From Candidatus Bipolaricaulota bacterium (lineage in GTDB: Bacteria; Patescibacteriota; Patescibacteriia; UBA11705; DATKZF01), in assembly GCA_035528115.1 (NCBI GenBank), contig DATKZF010000003.1, forward strand, positions 22,699 to 86,698: a stretch of 64,000 bases of DNA, read 5' to 3'. The translations under genes were made by a program, and so were the position numbers. The notes under the pieces were generated by a model that worked only from the letters and a program-made list of their open reading frames with translations, was not told the DNA's origin and did not search any database. This document shows positions 1,862-28,017 of the stretch, in pieces (positions within the stretch are counted from its first letter, which is position 1; the number at the start of each line of letters is the position of its first letter).

Positions 1862-2137
1862 ATGAGTTTTTTCGATCAAATCAAACAAATGAAACAGCTC
1901 CAAGCCCAAATGGCGGAAGAATTCGCCGAAGGCTCGGCCGGGTTTGGAAAAGTAAAAATTAAAATCAACGGCGCGCAGGAAATTTTGGACGTGCAAATCG
2001 ATGAAAGTCTTTTGGAAAACAAAGAAAAGCTTCAAAATCTCATCAAAGAAGCGACAAACGACGCCATTAAAAAAATCCAGCGGCAAATGGCTTTAAAAAT
2101 GAGAGGCCAAATGGGCGGAGGATTTCCGGGGCTTTAA
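1862..2137 (+). CDS. ybaB: nucleoid-associated protein YbaB/EbfC
   Basis: 91 aa; MSFFDQIKQMKQLQAQM start and GGFPGL end are typical of the YbaB family; gene order dnaB-ybaB-recR. Confidence 0.85.
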   Translation: MSFFDQIKQMKQLQAQMAEEFAEGSAGFGKVKIKINGAQEILDVQIDESLLENKEKLQNLIKEATNDAIKKIQRQMALKMRGQMGGGFPGL

Positions 2138-2258
2138 GCTTCCACCAGGCTTTACGTCGGACTTTAGTCCGAGCGCTTCAACCGGGCTTTAGCCCAGGGT
2201 CGTCGGACTTTAGTCCGAGCAAGCTAACCCTATCCAAAAAGCCCGGTAGAAATTTCAT

Positions 2259-2864
2259 ATGGTCATATACCCTTCCGAAATCGAAAACCTCATCGACAAA
2301 TTCAACAAACTTCCCGGCATTGGCAGAAAAACATCGGAGAAGTTTGTTTTTTATTTGCTCAGGGAAAATCCCCTCTTTCTTAATGAATTTTCAGCCAGCA
2401 TTTTAAATTTGAAAAAAAATCTCAACTTTTGCCAAAAATGCGGCAACTTCTCCGGCACAAAAACGATTTGCGAAATCTGCGCTGATGAACGCAGAGACAA
2501 ATCGCTTCTTTGCATTATCGAAGACATTCAAGATCTGGCCGTGATCGAATCGACCGGAGAATACCACGGGCAATATCACGTGCTCGGAGGACAAATCAAT
2601 CCGCTCGAAGGAATTACTCCCGAAAAATTGAATATTCAAAAATTAATCGACCGAGTCAAAGCCGAAAAATTTTCGGAGATAATTTTGGCCTTAAATCCGG
2701 ACATTCAAGGCGAAGCCACTTCCCTATACTTGGTCAAACTCTTCAAACCGCTCAACGTCAAATTCACCAAACTCGCCCGCGGCCTGGCCATGGGCAGCGA
2801 TTTGGAATACACGGATGAGACCACTTTGACCAACGCGCTCAAAGGCAGGCAGGAGGTAAAGTAA
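2259..2864 (+). CDS. recR: recombination protein RecR
   Basis: 201 aa; HhH (KLPGIGRKTSEK), C4 zinc finger (CQKCGNFSGTKTICEIC) and Toprim region; its last ~36 nt are the repeat unit seen three more times downstream. Confidence 0.9.
   Translation: MVIYPSEIENLIDKFNKLPGIGRKTSEKFVFYLLRENPLFLNEFSASILNLKKNLNFCQKCGNFSGTKTICEICADERRDKSLLCIIEDIQDLAVIESTGEYHGQYHVLGGQINPLEGITPEKLNIQKLIDRVKAEKFSEIILALNPDIQGEATSLYLVKLFKPLNVKFTKLARGLAMGSDLEYTDETTLTNALKGRQEVK
2821..2864 (+). repeat. recR 3'-terminal repeat, copy 1 (native terminus encoding ...TNALKGRQEVK*)
   Basis: ccactttgaccaacgcgctcaaaggcaggcaggaggtaaagtaa. Confidence 0.85.
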
Positions 2865-2989
2865 TTGATCATGGAGCATAAATCATGAAACAAAAACGGA
2901 TTAAATTTGCGATAGCGGTAACGAATCTCGAATAACAATCATCTCATTATAATCAACAATTTCATTAACTTTTATTTACTCAAAAAAAT

Positions 2990-4348
2990 ATGCAAAACTT
3001 TGAAAAACCAAAAGCGATAGACGAACAATGGTATGACACTTTTGAAAAACACGCGGCCTTTCAAGCTTATGAATACATGGATGGCGATAAAGAATACCGG
3101 GAAGAACAAAAAAAGAAATTTATAGCAGGCGAAATGGAAAATCCCGAATTGGATTATCCTAAAATCGATGTGAAAAAAATTGAAGAAACGGAACAAATTC
3201 TTCTAAAGCTTCGTAAAGACATTAAAACCCTGGAAGAAAATGAAATAGTCAGCCAGCTTTACAGGTGGCGGCTTAATGAAAAAATTGCCGAGCTTCGAAT
3301 CCTAAAAGCGGCGGCCAATAAAGACATGCATCGCTTTCAAGGATATTCGGAGTTTGTCTATGGCGCGCCTTCACCTGATATATTCGCTTACACTGTGCAA
3401 AACGTTAGGAAAACCGCTGAAAAGGCCGTTGAATCGGATAATGCTGATGTTAAAAAAACCGCTCAGGAATTGCTGTCCGCTCTGCCAGACAAAATGCCTG
3501 AAGTTAAAATTCAAGAATTGCCCGATGAGCCTACCGTGCAACTGGCTAAAGAAATGACGGAAAAAGAGATGAGCGACTTGATCAACATTTCGTACAAAGA
3601 CGGAAATTTTAACGCTGAAGATATCACGGCAATATTCACCCAAGCTTTGGCCGGCCTGCGCGCCGATGGCTGGCAGGTGGCGATTGACAAAAGCAGTAAA
3701 ACGGCCATCAGCGTTGATCAAGAATTAAAAACAATAAAAATTCCAGAGTCGAGAAAAATGCTTTTTAATAAACTCAGGACGCTGATCGCCCACGAAATAG
3801 GCACTCATGTCGCCCGCCGAACGAACGGAGAGCGAAGCCGCTTGAAATTGCTGGGTCTGGGACTGGATCGGTATGAAAAAGGCGAGGAAGGCGTGGCCAC
3901 AATGAGAGAGCAAGCTTTATCAGAAGAGCTGAATGATTTCGCCGGACTGGACGGCCATCTGGCCATCGGATTGGCATGCGGGCTTGACGACCAACCCAGG
4001 GATTTCAGAAAAGTGTATGAAATTTTGGAAAAATATTACCGGCTGAATAATTTGCTGCGAGGCAAAAAAATGGAAGAAGCCGTATCCGCTTCAACGACAA
4101 TTGCTTGGAACCGCGCGATTCGCACGTTCAGAGGCACTGACTGCAAAACTCCGGGCGTCTGCTTCACCAAGGATATAATTTACCGCGAAGGCAACATTGA
4201 AACATGGAATGTCGTAAAAAATAAACCGGAAGAGATGTCGCGCTTTAGCATCGGCAAATATGATCCGGCCAATCCGCGGCACATTTGGATCCTAGATACG
4301 CTGGGAATAACCGATAAGGAATTAAATCAAGCGCAACAGACCTCCTAA
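2990..4348 (+). CDS. hypothetical protein, DUF1704-like with HExxH motif (putative zinc metallopeptidase)
   Basis: 452 aa; HEIGTHVARR motif and a QALSEEL segment reminiscent of DUF1704 QEGLA-motif proteins (from memory); followed directly by recR-terminus repeat copy 2. Confidence 0.4.
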   Translation: MQNFEKPKAIDEQWYDTFEKHAAFQAYEYMDGDKEYREEQKKKFIAGEMENPELDYPKIDVKKIEETEQILLKLRKDIKTLEENEIVSQLYRWRLNEKIAELRILKAAANKDMHRFQGYSEFVYGAPSPDIFAYTVQNVRKTAEKAVESDNADVKKTAQELLSALPDKMPEVKIQELPDEPTVQLAKEMTEKEMSDLINISYKDGNFNAEDITAIFTQALAGLRADGWQVAIDKSSKTAISVDQELKTIKIPESRKMLFNKLRTLIAHEIGTHVARRTNGERSRLKLLGLGLDRYEKGEEGVATMREQALSEELNDFAGLDGHLAIGLACGLDDQPRDFRKVYEILEKYYRLNNLLRGKKMEEAVSASTTIAWNRAIRTFRGTDCKTPGVCFTKDIIYREGNIETWNVVKNKPEEMSRFSIGKYDPANPRHIWILDTLGITDKELNQAQQTS

Positions 4349-4383
4349 CCAACGCGCTCAAAGGGAGGCAGGAGGTGAAATAA
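4348..4383 (+). repeat. recR 3'-terminal repeat, copy 2
   Basis: accaacgcgctcaaagggaggcaggaggtgaaataa; 4 differences from copy 1, all synonymous in the RecR frame; abuts the stop of the 2990 ORF. Confidence 0.85.
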
Positions 4384-4393
4384 TTTTATAAAT

Positions 4394-4807
4394 ATGAACG
4401 AAAAACTAGAAACTTCCGGCGCTTTGGAAAAAATCAGCGCGGAAAAAATGAAAACTATAATTCAGGATGTGATCGACGACAATTTCTCGGTTTTCGACAA
4501 TGAAACCATGGCCGATTACGATGCTGATTTTTCCGGCGAAGAGCCTTGTCTCATAAACATTTGGGCCAAACGAAAAGGCTATGGATTCGGCTATTTGGTT
4601 TTTCATGATTTTCTGCGCCGAGTCGGTCTTCAAAAAACATTTCTTTCGACGGATTTTACGGAAGAAGGTTCAAACCTTTTTCAAAAAGCGATGTCCGACG
4701 GCTTGATAGAAAAAGTTTCCGAGCCGAGCGGTCTGCAAAGATTGACAAGATGGAAGGTCATAAACGACCCGATTCAAAATCTGGGAAAAATAAGCGACCG
4801 AAAATGA
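4394..4807 (+). CDS. hypothetical protein (cassette between recR-terminus repeats 2 and 3)
   Basis: 137 aa ORF with no recognisable motif; ends exactly at repeat copy 3. Confidence 0.5.
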   Translation: MNEKLETSGALEKISAEKMKTIIQDVIDDNFSVFDNETMADYDADFSGEEPCLINIWAKRKGYGFGYLVFHDFLRRVGLQKTFLSTDFTEEGSNLFQKAMSDGLIEKVSEPSGLQRLTRWKVINDPIQNLGKISDRK

Positions 4808-4815
4808 GATTTTTC

Positions 4816-4851
4816 AACCAACGCGCTGAAAGGCAGGCAGGAGGTGAAGTG
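4816..4851 (+). repeat. recR 3'-terminal repeat, copy 3
   Basis: accaacgcgctgaaaggcaggcaggaggtgaagtga; still encodes TNALKGRQEVK*. Confidence 0.85.
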
Positions 4852-4874
4852 AATATTTTATTAATCTATAATTT

Positions 4875-5528
4875 ATGAGTGCAGAAAATTGGGTACACGC
4901 TAGTTACATAGCAATATTTATTGGCGGTGTTATAGCCGCGTCTGGAGGTTTAGGGAGTTATTTTTTCAAAAATGCTTTGGAAAAAGAAGACTTAACAAAA
5001 AATAAGCCTGCGATTGAAATCAAAACTCAAAAGAATGATAACAAAATAAATTTTTATATAAAAAGCTCAAACGATAACGTAACTTCAATAGCGATTGATT
5101 ACCCTATCTGGGGAATCGTTACTAATATAACGGATTTCAATTCAATAACTGATGCCCAAACAAAAAAAATGGACGTCATAGGATCGACTAATGGTTATTC
5201 TCAGAATAACATTGAGATGCTTCTTGAAAAGATAAAACCAAATACTTCACTCGAATTTGAAGTTTCATTTAATAAAAATGGCATGTCTCCAGAAGATTTG
5301 GATTTAACTATTGTCGATTATGACAAATATATGAGCAGATATAAACTCTCATATACTTGGGAGTACAAAGGGAAAAAATACAGCGAAATGGAATGGCATC
5401 TTACAGGGGATGATAATTTAACCATTAAACCTGCAATAGAGTATAGAGATATTTCTATTATAAAAGAAGAGGATTCAATCACTCAAACGAATGTATCACA
5501 AAGAAGGAGTTTCATAAAAGCAGACTAA
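4875..5528 (+). CDS. hypothetical N-terminally membrane-anchored protein (AT-rich cassette)
   Basis: 217 aa; N-terminal hydrophobic helix (YIAIFIGGVIAASGGLGSYFF); about 30% GC unlike flanking host genes; followed by repeat copy 4. Confidence 0.5.
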   Translation: MSAENWVHASYIAIFIGGVIAASGGLGSYFFKNALEKEDLTKNKPAIEIKTQKNDNKINFYIKSSNDNVTSIAIDYPIWGIVTNITDFNSITDAQTKKMDVIGSTNGYSQNNIEMLLEKIKPNTSLEFEVSFNKNGMSPEDLDLTIVDYDKYMSRYKLSYTWEYKGKKYSEMEWHLTGDDNLTIKPAIEYRDISIIKEEDSITQTNVSQRRSFIKAD

Positions 5529-5555
5529 TCAAAAAACTTTAATAGCTACATGAAG

Positions 5556-5599
5556 CAACTTTAACTAATGCGTTTATAAGGAGGTAAGAGGTGAAATAA
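5556..5599 (+). repeat. recR 3'-terminal repeat, copy 4 (diverged, longer upstream match)
   Basis: caactttaactaatgcgtttataaggaggtaagaggtgaaataa aligns to copy 1 including the upstream cactttgac; coding potential lost. Confidence 0.7.
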
Positions 5600-5609
5600 A
5601 TAAGCAATA

Positions 5610-6521
5610 ATGTTTATTATGGCAAAATATTTAATCGTTTTAGGCGCTGGAGCTAGCTATGGCTCTGACAAGCCAGCAAACACACCACCGCTTACCAATA
5701 AATTATTTGACGAATTGTGTAAATCTAATCCAGAAGGCTGGGGTAGTTTAGATGGGAAATACAAAAAATTATTCAGGCAGGATTTTGAACAAGCGATGGA
5801 ACAAGTTGCAAAGGAACAACCACAGAACATGACAATTCTGCAAAGAGCAATGGCATACTATTTTTATAAATTTGAACCGTACTGTTCAAACCTATATTAT
5901 CAATTAGCTAAAAAAATAAAAAAGACAACATGGGATGGGGCTTTTGTATCCTTCAATTATGAAAGACTTTTAGAACTTTCCTTGTCAAGAGTAGGGTTTC
6001 AACCATATATTGGAAATAAGCCAAAAAATTCAAACAACCTGATAGAATTATGCTTACCCCACGGGTACTGCGATATTTTCTGTACCGCTGTAAAGGCAGG
6101 ATCAACAACAATTTTTTCTGGATGCAATGTTGATGGGCCAGTTAAAAAAACAAAAACGGAAGAAGAATTTGAAGGGGAAATTAAAAATAGTGTGCCACCT
6201 GTCATGAGTTATTTCGTGCCATCAAAAGTAACAATGAGTGGCACTTCTTTCATAAATCAACAAAGGAACAGATTTAAAGAACTTACCCAGACATCCTCTG
6301 TAATTGTCATTATTGGCATGCGGATTCGAAAACATGACGAGCATATTTGGGATCCTCTTTCGAGCACATCTGCCAAAATCATATATTGTGCAGGCACAAG
6401 CGCTGGCGAAGAATTTAAAGTATGGGCAGAAAAAAACAGAAAAGGCAAGGAAGATATAATGCTACAATTATACTTTAGAAATAACTTCAAACAAATATGT
6501 TTTCATTTAGGAATTATCTAA
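5610..6521 (+). CDS. SIR2-like domain protein (SIR2_2 family), candidate NADase defense effector
   Basis: 303 aa; N-terminal LIVLGAGASYGS...P...L motif and FNYERLLE motif match SIR2_2 (PF13289-like) signatures; candidate catalytic Asn at about residue 116 and His at about residue 151; AT-rich. Confidence 0.5.
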   Translation: MFIMAKYLIVLGAGASYGSDKPANTPPLTNKLFDELCKSNPEGWGSLDGKYKKLFRQDFEQAMEQVAKEQPQNMTILQRAMAYYFYKFEPYCSNLYYQLAKKIKKTTWDGAFVSFNYERLLELSLSRVGFQPYIGNKPKNSNNLIELCLPHGYCDIFCTAVKAGSTTIFSGCNVDGPVKKTKTEEEFEGEIKNSVPPVMSYFVPSKVTMSGTSFINQQRNRFKELTQTSSVIVIIGMRIRKHDEHIWDPLSSTSAKIIYCAGTSAGEEFKVWAEKNRKGKEDIMLQLYFRNNFKQICFHLGII

Positions 6522-6591
6522 TGTATAAATTTAGAATGTAACTCTCACAGTATGGCAACGCCATTAAGTAATCGTTAAATGATATAAAATT

Positions 6592-7014
6592 GTGAAAATA
6601 ATTACTAAAATGGAAATACTAAATACACTATTACAAAAAATCAAAGAAATGGACGAAAACATTGAATCTTGCATTATAGACAATTCGATTTGTTTCTCTC
6701 GCGAATTACACGATAAACACACAAATCATCCCCTAAACATGACTAGTGCTATTTGCATTGTAGAGAAACATGATGTTAACTTATATTTATTTATCTCTGA
6801 GCAAAAAAACACGAATGGTAGCAATCAAAAATTTAGCATCCACTTAAAAGATGGGGATAACACACTTTTAAAATATTACGACAAAGACACTAAATTCGGA
6901 ATACACATTCATGAATGCCCCAACGGGAAAAAGGAAAGGGCGCACAAGCCTTTTAATGGAGGAATAAATGAAATCGCACAGGATATAATTAAAATAATAA
7001 ATAATATTTTATGA
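6592..7014 (+). CDS. hypothetical protein
   Basis: 140 aa ORF, AT-rich; 4-nt overlap (ATGA) with the next ORF suggests translational coupling. Confidence 0.45.
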   Translation: MKIITKMEILNTLLQKIKEMDENIESCIIDNSICFSRELHDKHTNHPLNMTSAICIVEKHDVNLYLFISEQKNTNGSNQKFSIHLKDGDNTLLKYYDKDTKFGIHIHECPNGKKERAHKPFNGGINEIAQDIIKIINNIL

Positions 7015-7253
7015 AGATCTTAAAAATTATTGGAGTATTCATGATCGGTATTATAATTGGATATTTTATTTTTCACAAAGAAGACTCTAACGCAAACCTT
7101 GAGTACGGCCAAACAGGCGCTCCTAAAAATTGCAAAGCAATTATTTATGAAAATTATTTTGCATATAAAATTTCTGAAAAAATTACAGCAGAAGACGCTC
7201 TCACTTCCATTTATAGGAATTGTGGTGAAAATGGCCCAGCTTGGGAAAATTAA
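7011..7253 (+). CDS. small membrane-anchored hypothetical protein
   Basis: 80 aa; N-terminal TM helix (ILKIIGVFMIGIIIGYFIF). Confidence 0.4.
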   Translation: MKILKIIGVFMIGIIIGYFIFHKEDSNANLEYGQTGAPKNCKAIIYENYFAYKISEKITAEDALTSIYRNCGENGPAWEN

Positions 7254-7260
7254 AAAAACT

Positions 7261-7491
7261 ATGTCCAAATCTTGCACATCTTATAACTTCCCCTTAGGCA
7301 AATACAAACATTTCAAAGGCAATATCTACGAAGTCATCGGCTCGGCCAAACACAGCGAAACATTGGAAGATTTGGTGATTTATCGCTCGGTTGAGAATCC
7401 CGACGAGCTTTGGGTTCGGCCGAAAAAAATGTTTTTTGAAGAAGTGGAAGTAAACGGAGAGAAGATTCCCAGATTCGAATTTATGGAATAA
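7261..7491 (+). CDS. DUF1653 domain protein
   Basis: 76 aa; YKHFKGNIYEVIGSAKHSETLEDLVIYRS...ELWVRP matches the DUF1653 consensus; the longer track ORF 7057..7491 is an upstream read-through. Confidence 0.55.
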   Translation: MSKSCTSYNFPLGKYKHFKGNIYEVIGSAKHSETLEDLVIYRSVENPDELWVRPKKMFFEEVEVNGEKIPRFEFME

Positions 7492-7520
7492 ACGGCTCAG
7501 GCGAGGCCGTTTTTTGTTTT
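7492..7520 (+). terminator. putative rho-independent terminator
   Basis: acggctcaggcgaggccgt hairpin followed by ttttttgtttt. Confidence 0.45.
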
Positions 7521-7534
7521 CCCCAATATAATTC

Positions 7535-7560
7535 GAGTTGACTTGAAAAAATGTTATAAT
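7535..7560 (+). promoter_or_regulatory. extended -10 promoter (TGtTATAAT) for the 7588 gene
   Basis: atgttataat at 7551-7560, about 28 nt upstream of ATG 7588. Confidence 0.35.
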
Positions 7561-7587
7561 ATTTACAAAGATTATTAATTCCAACAT

Positions 7588-7842
7588 TTGGAAATTATTA
7601 TAAAAAATATGACACCTTACATTTTAATTTCAATCATTGTATTGGCAGTTATAGCGGCGCTGGTCTTTTTCCTCAAGGGCAAAAAATCAGGCGCCAAGCT
7701 CACGCCCTTAGCCGGAATTAGTTTCGCTTTCATTTTGGCGGGCATGGTTTTCGGCGAGAGCAGGATTGTTGGGTATAGCTTAATGGGCGCGGGCGTGGCT
7801 TTGGCGATCGTGGACATGATACTTAAATTGAAAAATAAATAA
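7588..7842 (+). CDS. small membrane protein (2 TM)
   Basis: 84 aa; two hydrophobic helices. Confidence 0.45.
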   Translation: MEIIIKNMTPYILISIIVLAVIAALVFFLKGKKSGAKLTPLAGISFAFILAGMVFGESRIVGYSLMGAGVALAIVDMILKLKNK

Positions 7843-7846
7843 TTTT

Positions 7847-7880
7847 AAAACCCCGAACAGCTGTTTAGCTGACGGGGCTT
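7847..7880. terminator. putative bidirectional terminator hairpin
   Basis: aaaaccccgaacagctgtttagctgacggggctt; ccccg/cgggg stem; lies between convergent genes. Confidence 0.35.
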
Positions 7881-7893
7881 GATGGAACATCCG

Positions 7894-8148
7894 TTACTCG
7901 CTAAGCTTGTCCGCGCGCCGGTAGATTTTGATCGTGTCGGTTTGATCATCCGGTTTTCGCACGAATTCCTTTCGCACGATGGCGCGCAGCAAATCGAGAA
8001 CGCAAACAAGTCCCGCGACCGGCATCTCCCATTCTCCGACCAGATGGTCTCCTTGCTCGCTGTCTCTCCAGAGGCTGACTTTTTCAAGACCCACGTAATA
8101 GCGGATCTTGGTCACCAGACGCAGTTTATACAGTTCAAGGTCAATCAT
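7894..8148 (-). CDS. hypothetical protein downstream of rplU; possibly ribosomal-processing cysteine protease Prp-like
   Basis: 84 aa; strong SD (ggaggagga) before ATG; QGDH...GLVCVL weakly resembles the Prp His/Cys dyad region; position after rplU is typical for prp. Confidence 0.3.
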   Translation of the reverse strand: MIDLELYKLRLVTKIRYYVGLEKVSLWRDSEQGDHLVGEWEMPVAGLVCVLDLLRAIVRKEFVRKPDDQTDTIKIYRRADKLSE

Positions 8149-8265
8149 CTCGATCCTCCTCCGTTTCCCGTTTTTGGGAATTTTTTAATGTTAACATCGG
8201 CCGCGCCTATTGTCAATCCGCAACAAAAAACAAGCCCGATCAGGCTTGCTTTTTATTTATTGAAA

Positions 8266-8640
8266 TTATTTCTTCACAGTTTTTGTAGCCGTTTTTTTCG
8301 GCTCAACCTTCTTTACTCCAGCTTTCACTCCGCCAACGCTTAAAATTTTAATTTGCGTAAAAGGCTGCCGATGTCCGTATTTTCTTCGATATCTGGTTTT
8401 GCTTTTGTACTTGATAACATCAATTTTTTTGGCTCTGCCCTGCTCTATAATTTCCGTTTCGACTTTCTTTGAAGTGAGCGGCAGGCCCAAATCAAAATCC
8501 TTAGCTGAAGCATCAGAGACGAGCATGGCGTCAAACGAAACCTTATCGCCGGCCTGGCCTTCAATTTTTTCTATTTTCAACATTTTGTTAGGAGTAACAA
8601 CGTATTGCTTGCCTCCGGTTTTTATCACTGCAATGATCAT
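8266..8640 (-). CDS. rplU: 50S ribosomal protein L21
   Basis: 124 aa; MIIAVIKTGGKQYVV... is a typical bL21 N-terminus; Lys-rich C-terminal extension. Confidence 0.85.
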   Translation of the reverse strand: MIIAVIKTGGKQYVVTPNKMLKIEKIEGQAGDKVSFDAMLVSDASAKDFDLGLPLTSKKVETEIIEQGRAKKIDVIKYKSKTRYRRKYGHRQPFTQIKILSVGGVKAGVKKVEPKKTATKTVKK

Positions 8641-8770
8641 ATTTTGGAAATTCGTTATATCGAAATTCGAGAATCGTTATCGAAAATCGAAATTAGAAAT
8701 CGGATTATGAATACAAGAGAAATTATAGCTAATCCAATGATTTTCGTCAAGTTTTGATAACCGCGAGGCA

Positions 8771-9874
8771 TCACTCTTTTTCCCTTAATTCTTTGGCTTT
8801 TTTATAAGCGAAAGCCATAATCAACATAAATGTCAAGAGCGCGGCCATGCCCAAAATTAAAAAAGCCAAGCCTTTGGTCTGCAAATACAGCGCCGCTCCG
8901 GCCAAAATCGCGCTGATTAACCACAAAAACACGCTGGCTCTCTTGACGCCGAAACCGGCGTCAAGCAAACGATGATGAAGATGTTTTTTGTCGGAAAAAC
9001 TGAATGATTTTTTTTCCATTTTGCGCCTAATGAGCGTCCAAGCCACGTCGAGTATGGGCAGGCTGAGCAACATCAAGGTCACCGTCACTTTACTGCCTGA
9101 AATAATGGACAGCGTGCCCAACACAAAACCCGTGTACGTGCTGCCGCCTTCGCCGAGAAAAATGGACGCGGGGTGAAAATTGAAAATCAAAAAGCCCAAG
9201 CATACGCCCGCAAAAATGATCGCCAGTAAAGCCACATCCGGCTGAACATCTTTATTCATCAAGGACACCGCGAAAATAAACAGCGCGCCGATTGTCGTAA
9301 TGCCGCCGACCAAGCCATCCAAACCGTCCAAAATTTTCGTGGTGTACATCATGCCCATCAGCCAAATGAAAGTGAACAAATCAGCCAAAAAAGTAACGCG
9401 GTAAGGAATGCCGTGAAACCACAATAAATCGATTTGATATTTGGCCAAATGCCAAATGCCGTCGCCGAACGGATTGGAAATCCAATCAATGCCGATGCCG
9501 GACATGCCTACCGATATTACGGCCAGGATCGGCCAAATGATTTGATATTTGGGTTTTAAATTATATTTGTCATCCAAAATCCCGCCCAACATTAAAAATG
9601 CGCCGCCGAACAGCAAGCCCCAGATGTATTTTATTAAAATGTTGCTGCCGACAAGTTCCTTGGTGAAATAAACATAAATTAAAATCACCGCGTTAAACGC
9701 CAAGAACAAAGCCAGTCCGCCCATTTTAGGAACCGGTTTATGGTGAATTTTTCTGAGGCTATTCGGATAATCCAGAATTTTTAATTTTTTCGCCAGGAAG
9801 CGAACCGTTATGGTCAAAACAACGCCGGACATAAACGCGATCGCTGCCGCGGCGATATAATCGGCGGCATTCAT
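8771..9874 (-). CDS. glycosyltransferase family 4 (MraY/WecA-type phospho-sugar transferase)
   Basis: 367 aa polytopic membrane protein; DDxxN/D-type motifs (ILDDKYNL, LDGLDGL). Confidence 0.75.
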   Translation of the reverse strand: MNAADYIAAAAIAFMSGVVLTITVRFLAKKLKILDYPNSLRKIHHKPVPKMGGLALFLAFNAVILIYVYFTKELVGSNILIKYIWGLLFGGAFLMLGGILDDKYNLKPKYQIIWPILAVISVGMSGIGIDWISNPFGDGIWHLAKYQIDLLWFHGIPYRVTFLADLFTFIWLMGMMYTTKILDGLDGLVGGITTIGALFIFAVSLMNKDVQPDVALLAIIFAGVCLGFLIFNFHPASIFLGEGGSTYTGFVLGTLSIISGSKVTVTLMLLSLPILDVAWTLIRRKMEKKSFSFSDKKHLHHRLLDAGFGVKRASVFLWLISAILAGAALYLQTKGLAFLILGMAALLTFMLIMAFAYKKAKELREKE

Positions 9875-21968: not shown

Positions 21969-22000
21969 TTGACTAAAATTAGATTTTATGCTATTATAAT
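21969..22000 (+). promoter_or_regulatory. sigma70-type promoter TTGACT-17-TATTAT driving the high-GC island
   Basis: ttgact at 21969-21974, 17-nt spacer, tattat(aat) at 21992-22000; lies in AT-rich host-like DNA immediately before the GC jump. Confidence 0.5.
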
Positions 22001-22095
22001 ATGTTATTCTGCGCGAATCAGCCGGACAAAACAAAGCTTTTCGCGACAGAATATTGTTTTTCACGCGGTGGAAACCGCCAAATTAGGAGGGAAGG

Positions 22096-22569
22096 ATGAA
22101 TCTGCTGAACGAGATCACTCGATTCACCTGCAATCTGTTCGACGACGACGACCGCGACCCCGAGTTCTTCGGAATGCACGAGGTCGGGCGGCGCGGCGAC
22201 GCTCTGCCCTTCATCGGGGACGTCGCGCGGCAGATCGCGGACGAGGACGGAGACGGAGACGATGAGTTCGTCTACCGGCCCAACGCCCCGATCGAGGGGC
22301 CGCTTCCCCGCCGGTCGGCCGATCCGCCCGCGGCCAAGCCCATTTTCTGCTCGGTCATCCCTCCCTTCACCAACCGCCCGACGAAGCGGGGCATGTACCA
22401 GCGCACTCGCAGTCTGCCCGCGGACTCGCTCCGCGAGTGCAAACCCCGACGGGACTCGAACTGGAAGGACTCCGGGGCTGAGCGCCAGTTCGTCCGTCAC
22501 ACGGGACGCCGCGGACGGATCATGACCATCCGCGACCCCGCGCTCGTCGACAACGACGCGATCGGTTAG
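22096..22569 (+). CDS. hypothetical protein (high-GC island ORF1, Asp-rich, no signal peptide)
   Basis: 157 aa; AGGAGG 7 nt upstream of ATG; antisense ORFs in this region judged to be GC artefacts. Confidence 0.4.
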   Translation: MNLLNEITRFTCNLFDDDDRDPEFFGMHEVGRRGDALPFIGDVARQIADEDGDGDDEFVYRPNAPIEGPLPRRSADPPAAKPIFCSVIPPFTNRPTKRGMYQRTRSLPADSLRECKPRRDSNWKDSGAERQFVRHTGRRGRIMTIRDPALVDNDAIG

Positions 22570-22717
22570 CCCACCTGTTCTTTCCCACCTTTCGCCCAAC
22601 CTCATTCGTTGGGCTCCAATCCTTGCTTGATATAATCACATAGCGGGCAAAGATCGGAGATTGTTCCGAAACACCCACCATGCTTCCCGCTGAGAGCGGG
22701 AAAAGAGGAGATGCTAG

Positions 22718-25700
22718 ATGAAACGGATGATCGTGTGTCTTATGGTTGTTCTTCTGGCCGCAAGCTGCGGCAACAGCGCGTCCACCCGCAAGGTGGAAAC
22801 CGACGCCGGTCCCGCGCTCGAATGCGGGGAGGGCACCATCAAAGTGGACGGAGAATGCCGTCCGAAAGACGAACTCTGCAACGGCATCGACGACGACGGG
22901 GACGGAGTGACGGACGAACAGTGCGTCATCCCTCCCAGCAACGTGGCCTGTGGCGCGGGTACCATCCTCGTAGATGGGGAATGCGTTCCCCTGCCAAATC
23001 AGGACTACGATGAGGACAACGACGGCTTCTCGCCGTTCGAAGGCGACTGCAACGACGACGATCCGACCATCAACCCGACGGCGACCGAAGTCTGTGATGA
23101 ACTGGACAACAATTGCGACGGGCAGGTAGACGAGGACGATCCGTCGCAGGACGATTTCTGCATCTCGATGAACCAGTACAACGGCAATTACGTTGCCGTT
23201 CAGGGTACGGAGAGGTGCCATGGGATCGCCGGCATGATCTGCACGCCGCTACCGGTCGAGCTATGCCGGCAAAACGCAGAAATCTGCGACAATGCTCTCG
23301 ACGACAACTGCGACGGCGTGGTGGACGAGGGCTGCGACCCCGACTTTGACTTTGACAAAGACGGCTTCAGTCCGTTCGACGGAGACTGCGACGACGACAA
23401 CCGCGACATCCATCCGGATGCCATCGAAAGCTGCAACGGCCTGGACGACGACTGCGACGGCCAGATCGACGAGGGCTACCCGATCCAGTTTTTCCTCCGC
23501 GACGCGGATGGAGACGGGCACGGAGATCCCGAAAACATGATTCAGGCCGCCGACTGTCTCTCCGCGCCGTACGGATACATCGACTGGATCGTCGACCTTG
23601 ACAACGACTGCGACGACAGCGACAGTCACGTCAACCCCGCGGCCATCGAGTACTGCAACAACATCGACGATGACTGCGACGGCGCGACCGACGAGGACGA
23701 CCCGGATATGGGTATTGCCTGCACGGCCGTGCTGAGTCTGCACGACCACGACGTGCCGATCCTCGGCGTCAACCTCTGTGAGAACGGAGAGATGCTGTGC
23801 ACGCCTCCGCCGCTGGAAGAATGCCAGCTGCAGACGGAAATCTGCGGCGACATCTACGACAACAACTGCGACGGGCAGGTGGACGAGGACTGTGAAGAAG
23901 ATGGGGCCCCGCACTACTGCGAGCCGGTCTACACCAACTACGGCATCCTGATCGGCTACCGCGGCTGTTGCGGCGCCAGCCCGCTGACTACTACTCATCC
24001 CGAAGCGGGCATGTTGATCAAGACGCATGAGTACAGCTCAGTGTACTACTACGCCAGTGACGGATTCAGGTATGTCTTCCCGACTACGCTCGAGCTAGAT
24101 TCCTGGTACTCTCCCCTCGACGAATACGGCATCCCCGTTTCGCCCAACGAGGAGATCTGCCAGCAGGTCTACGACGTTTCACTCCTTGTGTTGGCATCGA
24201 TTCCAATGGGCATGAAAAACGTCACCCTTCGTCCCGGAGCATTCGTCACCGGAAGCACGACGGACTCGAGCCAGCGCTACGTGGTGGATCACTGCGCGAC
24301 GCGGAAAGAAGTCGATCCGATCACCGTGCTGGATGAGATCTACTCGTCCAACTACGGGTCGACCGCCTGGGAGCGAACGCACCCGGTGTGGAATGTCATG
24401 TGGGGCATGTACACGACCGGTCAGACAGTCACCTCCGCCGATAATTTCGACTGGCTGGAAACATACCAGTCGGCAACCATCGAAGAGGAGCTGGGAATCA
24501 GCGGGATGTGCGTCGACCAGGACGGCGACGGCTACAGCCCATTCGCGGGCGATTGCGACGACGGAAATGATTCGCTCTTTCCCGGCGCGCAGGAACTCTG
24601 CGACGGGATTGACAATAACTGCGACGGCGAAACCGACGAAGATTTCGCCGAGTATCTCGGCCAGCCATGCAGAGGATACGCCCGTAACGGTGAATTCCTC
24701 GATGGCTACTGTTCCGAGATCGGGACAGTCGTTTGCCATAACAACCTCGCGCTCAGGTGTTCATCCGCTGACGAAAATTCGCGGTGGACAACCGATTACA
24801 ACTGGTCGTTGCCCGAAGTCTGCGGCAACAGCCTCGACGACAACTGCGACGGGCAGGTGGATGAAGGCTGCGACCAGCCGCCGGACGGAGTGAGCTTCTG
24901 CGAAGTCGACGATGACTGCGCGGATGCCGCCTGGGGCCAGTACTGCGTGTATTCGCTAGTACTGGATGCCAGCTTCTGCCAGGCTTGTCGGCAAGACGTC
25001 GACCCCGTGGACATGTCTCAATGGGAGTCTGTCGGATGCGGTGGTCAGACGCCAATCTGCGCATGGGGAGTCCAAACCGTACCCGTAAGCGATGCGTTTC
25101 CCGATGGGTATGCGCCGTTCTACTGGTGCGTGGAATGCGTCCTCGACACGGACTGCACACCGGGGTTCATCTGCTCGCAAGACAATTTCGTCTGCGAGCA
25201 GCAAGCCGCCGCCGCGACTTTGACTGTCGATGTCGCCGGCATGCCGGCTTCCGGCAATACCTACGTCAAAGGCACTGACGGAGTTCCGGCCGTAGGATTC
25301 ATCTTCACGGCCGGCGATTCCGCTGACGCGCTGGTCAATTCCGTGAAATTGACGGTGTACCTCGACAACAACCAAAACGGCTTTAGCGATACCGCGGATG
25401 TCGATGACACTTCGGGCGCCCAAAACGTTTTGGCGACAGTCACCATCTACGACGCAGGGACTCCGACAACCCCGCTGGCCGACGCCAAGAACCTGACAGT
25501 CAATGCCAGCGACATCACCGTTCAGTTCGACTCGTTGAACTGGACAGTCCCATCAGGCAGTACAAAAGCTCTGTTGGTCAAAGCGACGTTGTCGACCACA
25601 GCTCCTTTGAGCGGAGATGACGACGATTTCGCCTTGACGATCCAGGAGTCTGGCGATGTTGACGCCGAAGATGGCAATGGCACGGCGGTCAATGTCGTTC

Positions 25701-26719
25701 TGCAAAACGGCAACCAGGAACCGGATGTCTGGCAAACCGCAACCGGTGGCGGCATCCTGGACCTGACCGAAGCAACAAGCACACCCGTCTCATCCTTGCT
25801 CGTGGCCGGCACCTCGAACAACCTGGTTTCCGTGGTCGAATTCGCTTCGACCGGCGAAGCCTTCATCGTCGAGAGAATGCAGGTCTACGATGCCGACGGC
25901 AATGGCTATGATGAGATCGGTGCCGTCAGAGTAAGCTATACGAACAGCCTCGGCGAGACCGAAGCCAAGGCCGCGATCCCGGACATGAACGGGATTGCAA
26001 TTTTCAACAACTTGGACATCTATGTCCCGAAAGATGCGGCCGCGGATGTCCGGATCTTTACGGATCTGAACACGGTCGCGGGTAGCGCGGACAATGGCGA
26101 TTCAATCAGACTCACGGTGGCCGAATCCGCGAACTTCAGAGCGGTCGGACGAGAGTCGGGGGTCGTCGTCATCGACACGGCGGCTGCAGCTGACCCTGAG
26201 GTCAACAGCCACTACGTGTTCGAGTCCGTACCGAGTGTTGCCTTCGCGGTGGACACTCCGTCCGGAAATCTGATCCCGAGCGCCAACACTTTGTTGGCTA
26301 AATTAGCGGTCACCGCTGACGGCGCGAAGGACATCACGTTCGACGCGGCTACCGGCGATATTACTTTCAAGATCAGCTCTTCTTGCGCCGGCACGGCGAC
26401 AGGAGATGTTTACTTGAAAGACGCAGATGGAACCACTTTGGCTACACCCACCGCTATCGCTCCGTGTTCCGCCACCAGCGTTAAGTTCCTTTTCGAAGAT
26501 GTTACCACCGACTGGAGAGTTCCGGCCGGCGAGACCAAGTACTTGTATGTTTGGGGTGATACGTCAATGATGACGTCTCAGGGCGATTCCATCCAGCTCT
26601 GGTTGGATGACGCTTCAAATGCAAACTTCACTTGGAGCATCAACGGAATCGGCACTTACCAACATGCTGACATCCTCTTTAGAGGCGATAAGTATGGCGG
26701 TCTGTTGCTCAAGCCATAG
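22718..26719 (+). CDS. giant lipoprotein with about 10 MopE-type putative metal-binding repeats (CxxxDDDCDGxxDE) and C-terminal beta-rich repeats
   Basis: 1333 aa; lipoprotein signal MKRMIVCLMVVLLAASC; repeated DxDGDGxSPFxGDCDDxxxxxxPxAxExCDGxDNDCDGxxDE units; C-terminal half Thr/Val/Ala-rich tandem modules. Confidence 0.7.
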   Translation: MKRMIVCLMVVLLAASCGNSASTRKVETDAGPALECGEGTIKVDGECRPKDELCNGIDDDGDGVTDEQCVIPPSNVACGAGTILVDGECVPLPNQDYDEDNDGFSPFEGDCNDDDPTINPTATEVCDELDNNCDGQVDEDDPSQDDFCISMNQYNGNYVAVQGTERCHGIAGMICTPLPVELCRQNAEICDNALDDNCDGVVDEGCDPDFDFDKDGFSPFDGDCDDDNRDIHPDAIESCNGLDDDCDGQIDEGYPIQFFLRDADGDGHGDPENMIQAADCLSAPYGYIDWIVDLDNDCDDSDSHVNPAAIEYCNNIDDDCDGATDEDDPDMGIACTAVLSLHDHDVPILGVNLCENGEMLCTPPPLEECQLQTEICGDIYDNNCDGQVDEDCEEDGAPHYCEPVYTNYGILIGYRGCCGASPLTTTHPEAGMLIKTHEYSSVYYYASDGFRYVFPTTLELDSWYSPLDEYGIPVSPNEEICQQVYDVSLLVLASIPMGMKNVTLRPGAFVTGSTTDSSQRYVVDHCATRKEVDPITVLDEIYSSNYGSTAWERTHPVWNVMWGMYTTGQTVTSADNFDWLETYQSATIEEELGISGMCVDQDGDGYSPFAGDCDDGNDSLFPGAQELCDGIDNNCDGETDEDFAEYLGQPCRGYARNGEFLDGYCSEIGTVVCHNNLALRCSSADENSRWTTDYNWSLPEVCGNSLDDNCDGQVDEGCDQPPDGVSFCEVDDDCADAAWGQYCVYSLVLDASFCQACRQDVDPVDMSQWESVGCGGQTPICAWGVQTVPVSDAFPDGYAPFYWCVECVLDTDCTPGFICSQDNFVCEQQAAAATLTVDVAGMPASGNTYVKGTDGVPAVGFIFTAGDSADALVNSVKLTVYLDNNQNGFSDTADVDDTSGAQNVLATVTIYDAGTPTTPLADAKNLTVNASDITVQFDSLNWTVPSGSTKALLVKATLSTTAPLSGDDDDFALTIQESGDVDAEDGNGTAVNVVLQNGNQEPDVWQTATGGGILDLTEATSTPVSSLLVAGTSNNLVSVVEFASTGEAFIVERMQVYDADGNGYDEIGAVRVSYTNSLGETEAKAAIPDMNGIAIFNNLDIYVPKDAAADVRIFTDLNTVAGSADNGDSIRLTVAESANFRAVGRESGVVVIDTAAAADPEVNSHYVFESVPSVAFAVDTPSGNLIPSANTLLAKLAVTADGAKDITFDAATGDITFKISSSCAGTATGDVYLKDADGTTLATPTAIAPCSATSVKFLFEDVTTDWRVPAGETKYLYVWGDTSMMTSQGDSIQLWLDDASNANFTWSINGIGTYQHADILFRGDKYGGLLLKP

Positions 26720-26771
26720 AGCGCCCTTTTCCGCCCAACCGTCCATGACGGTTGAGGCAAGGAGACACGAA

Positions 26772-26808
26772 AAAACGCCTTCCGGATCACTCTGGAAGGC
26801 GTTTCTAA
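26772..26808 (+). terminator. rho-independent terminator (copy 1 of a duplicated terminator)
   Basis: gaaaaaacgccttccggatcactctggaaggcgtttctaatttt; 9-bp stem acgccttcc/ggaaggcgt plus T-run. Confidence 0.7.
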
Positions 26809-26958
26809 TTTTAAAATCACCATTGACATATTCCTCAAACTGTGCAAAAATATGAATTCCGCGGATAATTGCCATTCAAGCCTTGTTTATTTGCTAAAAT
26901 AAGCGGGGCTTGGGTAGTAATTCGTGTTCAACGGCTTTCCAATAGGAGGGAAAAAGCC

Positions 26959-28017
26959 ATGAAACACTTCGGTTGCTTGTTCGCGTGCGTACTGGTTCTG
27001 GGCTGCGGCGACAACGGCAGCAAGCCACAACTGGGCGATGCCCAGGACGTCGCCGTGTTCGATTTCTCGGGCAACGACCTCCAAGAGACGTTCATGCCCG
27101 ACACGTCCGGCGACGTCAGCGCCGCCGAAGTCACGAGCGACGCGACCATCGAGGACGCCGGCGAGGACTCGGCCATCGAGGCCGGTTCCGACCTGCCGAC
27201 GCAAGACATGATCGAAGACGCGCCGGTCGAGCTGTGCGGCAATGGAGCGCTCGATCCGGGCGAGCAGTGCGACGGCGTCCCCGCGGACGACGTCAACTGT
27301 CAGACGCTCGGCTTCTACGCCGGGCACCTGTCCTGCGCGGACTGTTCGTTCGACACCAGCCAGTGCTCGAACGAAGTGCCCCCGACCTGCGGGGACGGCA
27401 ACGTGGACGCGGGAGAGGACTGCGATGGCGACAACCTCGCGGGATCCTACTGCACCTCGCTCGGATGGGAATTCACGGGCGGTTCGCTCGCCTGCCTCGA
27501 CTGCGCCTTCGACGCCAGCGGCTGCACTCCCCAGTGCGGCAACGGCGTCTGCGAGCCGGAAGAGTCCTACGACTCATGTCCGGACGACTGTCCGCAACCA
27601 TGCCTGGAGGCGCTCGTCATGGCCTTCGCGGCCGACGGTCCGCAGAACCTGGTCATGAACGTGAATGCGCACGTGGCCAGAATCAGCTTGTCCGCCATCG
27701 GCGAGAACGCGGTCGTGGACACGTTGACGTTCCGCGTCGCGGTCCAGATCGCCACGCCGGACAGCGACGTGGAGACCTGGCGTCTCAAGACGGAGACCAC
27801 GCTCGTGATCGCCGACTACCTGGCCGATCTCTCGGGCGATGAGAACGGCTTAGTGATCTTCAACATCAACAACCCGCTGACAATCACTCCCGGCGCGCCG
27901 AGGACGCTGGACATCTTCGTCAACACGGCCGAGATGGACGCGGCAACCGACACCCTTCAGCTGTGGCTCGTAACGGGCTGCGGCGAAGAGGTGGAAGGTC
28001 CGTTGCTGATCAAGTAA
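26959..28017 (+). CDS. lipoprotein with myxo-type cysteine-rich repeats (CGNGxxDxGExCDG) and a C-terminal domain shared with the giant protein
   Basis: 353 aa from ATG 26959 (AGGAGG RBS); signal MKHFGCLFACVLVLGC; CGNGALDPGEQCDG, CGDGNVDAGEDCDGDN and CGNGVCEPEE repeats; C-terminal TLQLWL motif also present in the 22718 protein. Confidence 0.65.
   Translation: MKHFGCLFACVLVLGCGDNGSKPQLGDAQDVAVFDFSGNDLQETFMPDTSGDVSAAEVTSDATIEDAGEDSAIEAGSDLPTQDMIEDAPVELCGNGALDPGEQCDGVPADDVNCQTLGFYAGHLSCADCSFDTSQCSNEVPPTCGDGNVDAGEDCDGDNLAGSYCTSLGWEFTGGSLACLDCAFDASGCTPQCGNGVCEPEESYDSCPDDCPQPCLEALVMAFAADGPQNLVMNVNAHVARISLSAIGENAVVDTLTFRVAVQIATPDSDVETWRLKTETTLVIADYLADLSGDENGLVIFNINNPLTITPGAPRTLDIFVNTAEMDAATDTLQLWLVTGCGEEVEGPLLIK

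Follow-up and report, generated by a model that had tools for sequence, protein, structure and literature searches.

What does the AT-rich block near the start of this contig segment hold: a compact defence module of several genes, or a defence-type gene that travels alone? The stretch examined, hereafter the window, comprises 64,000 nucleotides (nt) of contig DATKZF010000003.1 from a metagenome-assembled genome labelled Candidatus Bipolaricaulota bacterium (positions 22,699 to 86,698), and the element under study is a gene at 5619..6521 on the plus strand that encodes a SIR2-like protein of 300 aa. A preliminary description of the locus had seen in it a SIR2_2-type effector accompanied by small membrane-protein partners within one AT-rich sub-island. 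The analysis revealed that the gene is a standalone cassette and not part of a multi-gene module, and we hold with moderate confidence that it encodes an intact, standalone immune-type SIR2 of AbiH-like architecture, probably an infection-triggered enzyme that destroys nicotinamide adenine dinucleotide (an NADase). The NADase activity and the defence phenotype are proposed by analogy with the SIR2 chemistry of ThsA, DSR, SIR2-HerA and SPARSA. SIR2 NADases rank with the most frequent effectors in prokaryotic immunity, and to our knowledge nearly all those characterised rely on a sensor fused to them or on a partner (SLOG, HerA, pAgo, STAND or a tail-tube-binding domain).

The AlphaFold (AF2) model of the protein, with a predicted local distance difference score (pLDDT) of 92.7 and a predicted template modelling score (pTM) of 0.91, has the fold of the SIR2 superfamily, that is, a three-layer Rossmann domain with an inserted small domain. 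All 75 of the PDB matches listed by Foldseek at E ≤ 1e-3 were SIR2 or sirtuin chains, headed by the SIR2 subunit chains of SIR2-HerA/Nezha systems (E from 1.7e-8 for 8SUB to 1e-6, with 8J4U and 8WLD also among them), while SIRT2/3, CobB, Af-Sir2, PsSIR2 and the SIR2-STAND protein EfAvs5 ranked next below. The order of secondary structures in the model is also that of SIR2, with strand 1 leading into GAGAS and then a helical insert, strand 107-111 preceding N113, strand 141-145 preceding H148, and then a beta-rich insert at the place of the sirtuin Zn module followed by strand 228-232 and G233. The helical insert (residues ~26-101) and the beta-rich insert (~150-205) are specific to the family.

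The active-site features that had been pointed out earlier, namely a GAGAS motif, an NYE..LLE motif and a candidate catalytic Asn/His pair spaced as in ThsA, were all recovered. In 40 homologues, 46 columns are invariant, including GAGAS, NYE..LLE, N113-Y114 and P147-H148-G149, where N113 and H148 are the residues formerly placed at about 116 and 151 in the numbering of a 303-aa reading frame. When the alignment was broadened to both branches of the family, a close one and a divergent one, G9-A10-G11-A12-S13, N113-Y114 and H148-G149 were still invariant down to 24% identity. The NAD-binding loop G9-S13 aligns with GAGAS/GAGFS of E. coli SIR2-HerA and Avs5, and a further motif, G233/D240/H242/W244 (D-x-H-x-W), lies near the C-terminus. 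The profile built from both branches places N113 on N112 and H148 on H152 of ThsA (6LHX, 'TTNYDRLIE' and 'KMHGD'), bringing the motifs NY(D/E)xLxE and xHG into register, so that both the Asn/His assignment and the spacing are correct, and the two residues occupy the positions of the ThsA catalytic residues. Among PDB sequences, the same profile matched SIR2-type proteins exclusively, namely PsSIR2 (E 0.0048), Avs5, ThsA 6LHX, E. coli SIR2-HerA, KomC and FAM118B; phmmer and the close-family profile returned nothing relevant from PDB sequences, and only the broadened profile reached SIR2 structures. Since the window copy deviates at just 3 of the 81 columns that are ≥90% conserved, within a family range of 0 to 10, it is intact and not decayed.

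The label 'SIR2_2-type' was upheld by the fold but not by membership of the Pfam family. PF13289 (SIR2_2), with a gathering cut-off of 24.5 bits, gave no match at E ≤ 1 for the window protein, and scans of the protein against Pfam, NCBIfam, PHROGs and PADLOC returned nothing at threshold. The same Pfam profile matched one of the 40 close members (E 0.032), and the best divergent relative reached 21.6 bits. The divergent relatives (24–31% identity) read 'TLNYDxLxE ... LKxHGS', correspond to positions 2-51 of SIR2_2 and match SIR2 models of PADLOC, with a best E of 6.3e-7. The family is not modelled in Pfam, NCBIfam or PADLOC.

A total of 417 homologues were detected, from many phyla, with identities of 43–54% among the 120 listed. 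An exhaustive hidden Markov model (HMM) search of 1.84 billion cluster representatives, with an alignment of 40 close-branch members as query, returned 1,358 clusters (defined at 50% identity) at E ≤ 1e-3 and 1,006 at E ≤ 1e-10. Nearly all of them are about 300 aa in length, single-domain and covered by the profile from end to end. Fusions are rare: one to a coiled-coil and a CBS pair, one to a SEC-C motif, one with a Zn-ribbon tail, and a few with unannotated N-terminal extensions of ~140 aa; they were considered as functional clues and dropped as too rare. In addition, a pattern-seeded scan of one genome per species over 185,579 species confirmed 102 relatives, scattered over bacteria and archaea and including Gracilibacteria, Peribacteria, Falkowbacteria, Bathyarchaeia, Heimdallarchaeota and Nanobdellati, a patchy distribution that points to horizontal transfer. 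No member was found in the sequenced phage genomes searched, and plasmids yielded a single match, on a Halorubrum plasmid.

The genomic surroundings of the homologues make the defence role proposed earlier a plausible one. In the close branch (45–53% identity), all seven Pfam-annotated contexts carry hallmarks of mobile elements or defence within 7-8 kb on either side. The Falkowbacteria copy lies among a helix-turn-helix (HTH)-Fic toxin–antitoxin (TA) pair, an acetyltransferase, a DpnII restriction–modification system, a reverse transcriptase (RT) with a PD-(D/E)XK protein, HARE-HTH and an ABC/STAND-like ATPase, while P0002 is carried by an integrative element with a CI/LexA-like repressor, an excisionase-type HTH protein, NERD and a large serine recombinase. 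Others lie near an integrase, GIY-YIG and a ParE TA pair (P0059), between transposases (P0046), near an integrase, HTH_17 and SLFN_AlbA_2 (P0056), next to MvaI/BcnI and a methyltransferase (P0047), or near an integrase, a Gp49/HTH TA pair, SLFN_AlbA_2 and a transposase (P0069).

The divergent branch was found at 32 loci of IMG/VR. In five of these (L083, L099, L102, L104 and L105), a P2-type gpA ('nicking at origin', phrog_91) lies on one side of the gene and the portal gene (phrog_68) on the other; at other viral loci its neighbours are terminase small subunits, integrases or UmuCD. In P2-like phages, the gpA-gpQ interval (old/tin) has been validated by experiment as a hotspot for anti-phage systems (PMC9122126). 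On scaffold 11 of Geothrix terrae SG184 (L055:608-5500), seven attC-like repeats of 134 nt are spaced 0.4 to 1.1 kb apart, and the divergent SIR2-like gene (4021-4959) makes up exactly one cassette between two of them. The ends of these repeats, GCCTAAC...GTTAGGC, match the attC R''(RYYYAAC) and R'(GTTRRRY) cores and pair as a hairpin in the predicted single-stranded DNA fold; from the repeats, cores and fold, the array is assigned as a putative integron-type cassette array. Streamlined defence systems are reportedly abundant in integron cassettes (10.1101/2024.07.02.601686). Taken together, these settings (defence islands, integrative elements, prophage hotspots and one integron cassette array) show a family whose members move as cargo of a single gene.

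As a standalone immune-type SIR2, the protein would bind NAD+ and hydrolyse it, or transfer its ADP-ribose, and would be held inactive until infection. Because no sensor is fused or linked to it, whatever triggers the protein has to do so at the SIR2 domain itself or at the family-specific inserts, and the switch could be a change in assembly state or the binding of a phage component through the helical and beta-rich inserts. There are precedents for both, since ThsA and Avs5 are activated by filament assembly and DSR2 by direct binding of a phage protein. Depletion of NAD+ would then arrest the infected cell, which would make the gene a one-gene abortive-infection system.

Several points weigh against this proposal. 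The Asn/His pair does not discriminate NADases from SIR2 enzymes that act as deacylases or ADP-ribosyltransferases, and TM-scores to solved SIR2s are modest (0.5–0.6), because of the large inserts. The high conservation of the family (45–53% identity across phyla, with its 46 invariant columns) is less typical of fast-evolving defence genes, and no sensor domain or partner is evident for it. The close branch was not found in IMG/VR or in sequenced phages, viral contigs carrying only the divergent branch, and the enrichment of mobile and defence contexts is qualitative, coming from a survey without a background control. The literature searched, whose coverage was incomplete, yielded no study that had tested any short, standalone SIR2 from the family and no biochemical or phenotypic data on any member.

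The strongest competing explanation is that the gene is mobile-element cargo with a non-defence NAD-dependent activity, either an ADP-ribosyltransferase or deacylase acting on a specific host or element target (in regulation, addiction or as a toxin), or a counter-defence enzyme of a phage or element that destroys NAD-derived immune signals. High conservation would suit a fixed substrate, the gene does occur on prophages, and the rare CBS and Zn-ribbon/SEC-C fusions, together with a small Zn-ribbon ORF (open reading frame) in seven loci, might suggest such a role; yet the locations match known defence hotspots, and sequence, profile and best structural neighbours are NADase-type immune SIR2s rather than sirtuins. 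A conserved Cys cluster of the close branch (C145, C151 and C155), at the position where sirtuins carry their Zn module, also favours this explanation, but it is not kept in the divergent branch. Moreover, PF02146 (classical SIR2) matched neither the window protein nor any of the 40 close members, the classical sirtuin combination of PF02146 with a four-Cys zinc module was not found, and sirtuins rank structurally below the defence SIR2s. We therefore regard non-defence cargo as unlikely, while giving it appreciable weight, and retain the standalone immune-type SIR2 as the preferred explanation.

The module envisaged in the preliminary description, in which the SIR2 effector works with the anchored protein p217 and/or the coupled pair of 140 and 80 aa as sensors or membrane partners, was found to be very improbable. 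The genes concerned run in the same direction at short distances, are alike in their low GC content and have no terminator-like site between them before 7490, but a set of 111 homologue loci (79 genomic and 32 viral from IMG/VR) speaks otherwise: p217, p140/p134 and p80 recur in 0 of the 111, and neither do DUF1653, p137, p84 or the MATCAP-like gene. Among 5.8 billion proteins, p217 and p134 have no homologue beyond themselves, so that p217 (217 aa, 4875..5528, plus strand, with a hydrophobic N-terminus) and p134 are ORFans, and no PADLOC or Pfam match was found for the supposed partners; a scar of the recR end also lies between p217 and the SIR2 gene. As the neighbours are never linked to homologues, the partner architecture fails, and p217, p134 and p80 are unrelated orphan cargo acquired separately.

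The 116 genes that directly flank homologues contain no Pfam family more than twice. The sole recurrent neighbour is a zinc-ribbon-like ORF of ~81-105 aa (CxxC...CxxCG), present in 7 of the 111 loci (L028, L032, L033, L059, L063, L066 and L075), and its stop overlaps the SIR2 start in six of the seven. This ORF is not in the window and was rejected as a general partner on both counts; it forms, with the SIR2 gene, a minority two-gene sub-architecture.

The history of the locus is recorded in a stack of direct repeats. The last ~50-65 nt of recR (...GACCAACGCGCTCAAAGGCAGGCAGGAGGTAAAGTAA) occur in four copies in the window, all on the plus strand: copy 1 at the recR 3' end itself (2806..2871, nhmmer E 3.3e-18), copy 2 at the stop of the MATCAP-like gene (4327..4393, E 2.6e-16), copy 3 at the stop of p137, which is the left edge of the AT-rich block (4798..4863, E 9e-16), and copy 4 between p217 and the SIR2-like gene, immediately ahead of the latter (5542..5609, E 1.4e-14). 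Copy 4 is the most diverged, being shifted toward A/T and 69% identical to copy 2. No further copy was found in the 64 kb; a fifth, sought downstream of the SIR2 gene with nhmmer --max, was not recovered, and the SIR2-p134-p80 segment is thus without a bounding repeat. Such repeats are what one would expect if successive insertions used the 3' end of a gene as their target or as a site of recombination, each bringing or leaving a copy of that end. The layout shows that three genes, the MATCAP-like one, p137 and p217, were each acquired on their own, and, by virtue of copy 4, that p217 and the SIR2 gene are not one cassette. Probes for tyrosine integrases, serine recombinases and RTs gave no match in the window, and tRNA genes do not serve as the integration landmark, because they are >43 kb away. 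As to the order of insertion, repeat divergence makes the distal copy look oldest, whereas by composition the distal genes look least ameliorated. A scan of metagenomes with the MATCAP-like protein returned one relative locus, at 28% identity.

The AT-rich character of ~4860-7260 was confirmed, with a GC content of 0.327 against a mean of 0.453 for the window and the lowest value among 616 sliding windows of 2.4 kb, but the block is not the single sub-island that it was taken for, because the recR-end copy separates p217 from the SIR2 gene. GC content at third codon positions (GC3) looks foreign in p217 (0.28), the SIR2-like gene (0.31), p134 (0.33) and p80 (0.26), host-like in the flanking recR (0.54), dnaB (0.52), DUF1653 (0.51) and p84 (0.53), and intermediate in the MATCAP-like gene (0.47) and p137 (0.44).

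On the plus strand, the recR ORF (2259-2864; RecR Pfam domains on the source contig) is followed by the first inserted cassette, the MATCAP-like gene (PF08014; 452 aa; 2990..4348; Pfam E 3.4e-26), then by p137 (137 aa; 4394..4807; GC 0.418) as the second and p217 as the third. The ORFs are those described earlier, with refined starts: the SIR2-like ORF opens at 5610 (303 aa), while the start conserved in homologues, and given in the public record, is 5619, and p134 begins at ATG 6610 in public calls (6610..7014), with an alternative GTG at 6592 that would give 140 aa (6592-7014). The 80-aa p80 (7011..7253), with a hydrophobic N-terminus, overlaps the p134 stop by 4 bp (ATGA). No family match was found in Pfam, PADLOC, NCBIfam or PHROG for p137, p134 or p80. 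The DUF1653 gene (7273..7491; PF07866, E 2.9e-28) was indeed found after the gene pair, but it stands outside the AT-rich block, as its right flank, and is host-like in composition; it has no linkage to the SIR2-like family in the 111 homologue loci. An intrinsic-terminator-like hairpin with a T-run follows at 7490..7512. Past the end of recR, which itself contains one weak site (2662-2676), no plus-strand terminator-like site comes before this one, so that read-through transcription of the stack is plausible. An Rfam scan of 2000-9000 gave no match.

Certain other features of the stretch were also observed. Public gene calls miss the plus-strand DUF1653 gene and annotate instead a minus-strand ORF of 97 aa (7294-7587). 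The DUF1653 protein weakly matches PHROG 2162, 'Sir2 (NAD-dependent deacetylase)' (E 0.017, profile positions 120-180), and some phage Sir2 proteins may contain a DUF1653-like module. The AT-rich block is bracketed by an inverted repeat of 27 nt (89% complementary), with one arm inside p137 (4627-4653) and the other inside DUF1653 (7416-7442); its exact core of 16 nt has no second instance in the window (expected 0.02). A DUF1653 remnant in inverted orientation opposite p137 was considered as its source and rejected, as no remnant explains the repeat. Far downstream, at ~22000-28000, GC rises to 0.58–0.66 against 0.45 in a region that holds plus-strand ORFs of 1,333 aa (22718-26719) and 382 aa (26869-28017) and is probably another foreign segment.

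That the gene is a housekeeping sirtuin-like gene lying by chance in an AT-rich stretch is scarcely credible, for despite its place among the core genes dnaB, recR and rplU and its probable co-transcription with them, it has foreign composition, an insertion scar at its flank, only the 102 scattered relatives confirmed in the pattern-seeded scan and a position outside the sirtuin clade.

On a wider scale, we tentatively propose that the preferred standalone immune-type SIR2 is the founding example of a single-gene defence family, widespread in bacteria and archaea (~1,350 clusters) with CPR-like lineages (candidate phyla radiation) among them, that would sense infection without a sensor domain or partner, perhaps through self-assembly as in FAM118B, ThsA and Avs5. 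As a separate and equally tentative point, the fourfold re-copying of the recR 3' end may reflect accretion of cassettes at the terminus of a housekeeping gene without a locally encoded integrase. Though the effector chemistry is already well known, a 300-aa SIR2 that travels alone would, if this is true, offer a minimal system for asking how a NADase stays silent and is then triggered. The family fills an annotation gap in Pfam, NCBIfam and PADLOC and extends to bacteria of CPR type and archaea of DPANN/Asgard type, lineages about whose defence repertoires little is known, and the recR-terminus stack clearly documents how a small genome gained single genes one after another.

Among known systems, Thoeris, SIR2-HerA, DSR and SPARSA are each defined by partners or domains that the window protein lacks, and it therefore belongs to none of them. 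It shares with ThsA of Thoeris (6LHX) the GAGxS loop, (T)NY(D/E)xLxE, xHG and a near-identical Asn-His spacing, but it is single-domain, without SLOG/Macro, and no TIR/ThsB or other Thoeris match was found among the neighbours; activation therefore cannot be by the known Thoeris-type signal. The SIR2 proteins of SIR2-HerA/Nezha (8SUB, 8J4U, 8WLD and 8W9L) are its best structural matches (E 1.7e-8, TM 0.55–0.61), and PsSIR2 is the best PDB sequence match; however, identity is only 12–15%, the lengths are 300 aa against 380–415 aa, and no HerA ATPase adjoins the gene in the window or recurs in the 116 homologue-flanking genes. DSR1/DSR2 differ in having a large C-terminal sensor domain, whereas the SIR2 profile covers the whole 300 aa of the window protein, and no pAgo/APAZ match was found among the neighbours, as would be expected of SIR2-APAZ/pAgo (SPARSA) systems.

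Vertebrate FAM118B/FAM118A and the 264-aa SIR2 NADase KomC (8ZSF) are likewise short, SIR2-only members of the immune branch, with marginal profile matches to FAM118B and KomC (E 0.27–0.5). FAM118B is a sensor-less SIR2 regulated by assembly into head-to-tail filaments (PMC12700824). Yet KomC acts in a multi-gene system and FAM118B needs its paralogue, while no such partner was seen for the window protein. The PADLOC candidate single-gene system PDC-S21, on which no paper was found in the literature searched, gave a weak local match (E 6.7e-4, residues 221-261 against profile positions 254-294 of 336) that spans only ~40 residues, covering the C-terminal Rossmann strand and the D-x-H motif.

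The nearest counterpart in architecture is AbiH (PF14253) of Lactococcus abortive infection, likewise a single-gene, standalone immune-type SIR2 of ~300-350 aa with no fused sensor. The immune-type SIR2 (SIRim) clade of Bonhomme et al. includes single-gene AbiH, and defence genes are reported to be 12-fold enriched around this clade (10.1101/2024.09.18.613514). ThsA, SIR2-HerA, DSR and Avs5 are among the other members of the immune-type branch. The AbiH profile signals are weak, at E 0.012 (16.2 bits) for the window protein and E 4.9e-4 for the family member P0200, and the best family member, at 20.7 bits, stays below the gathering cut-off of 30.9. The window family differs from AbiH in its GAGAS loop, in conserved inserts and a C-terminal D-x-H-x-W that are peculiar to it, and in its spread over bacteria and archaea, including metagenome-assembled genomes of CPR/DPANN type. 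Lying outside Pfam SIR2_2 and AbiH by threshold, it appears to be a new, unmodelled standalone branch of SIRim.

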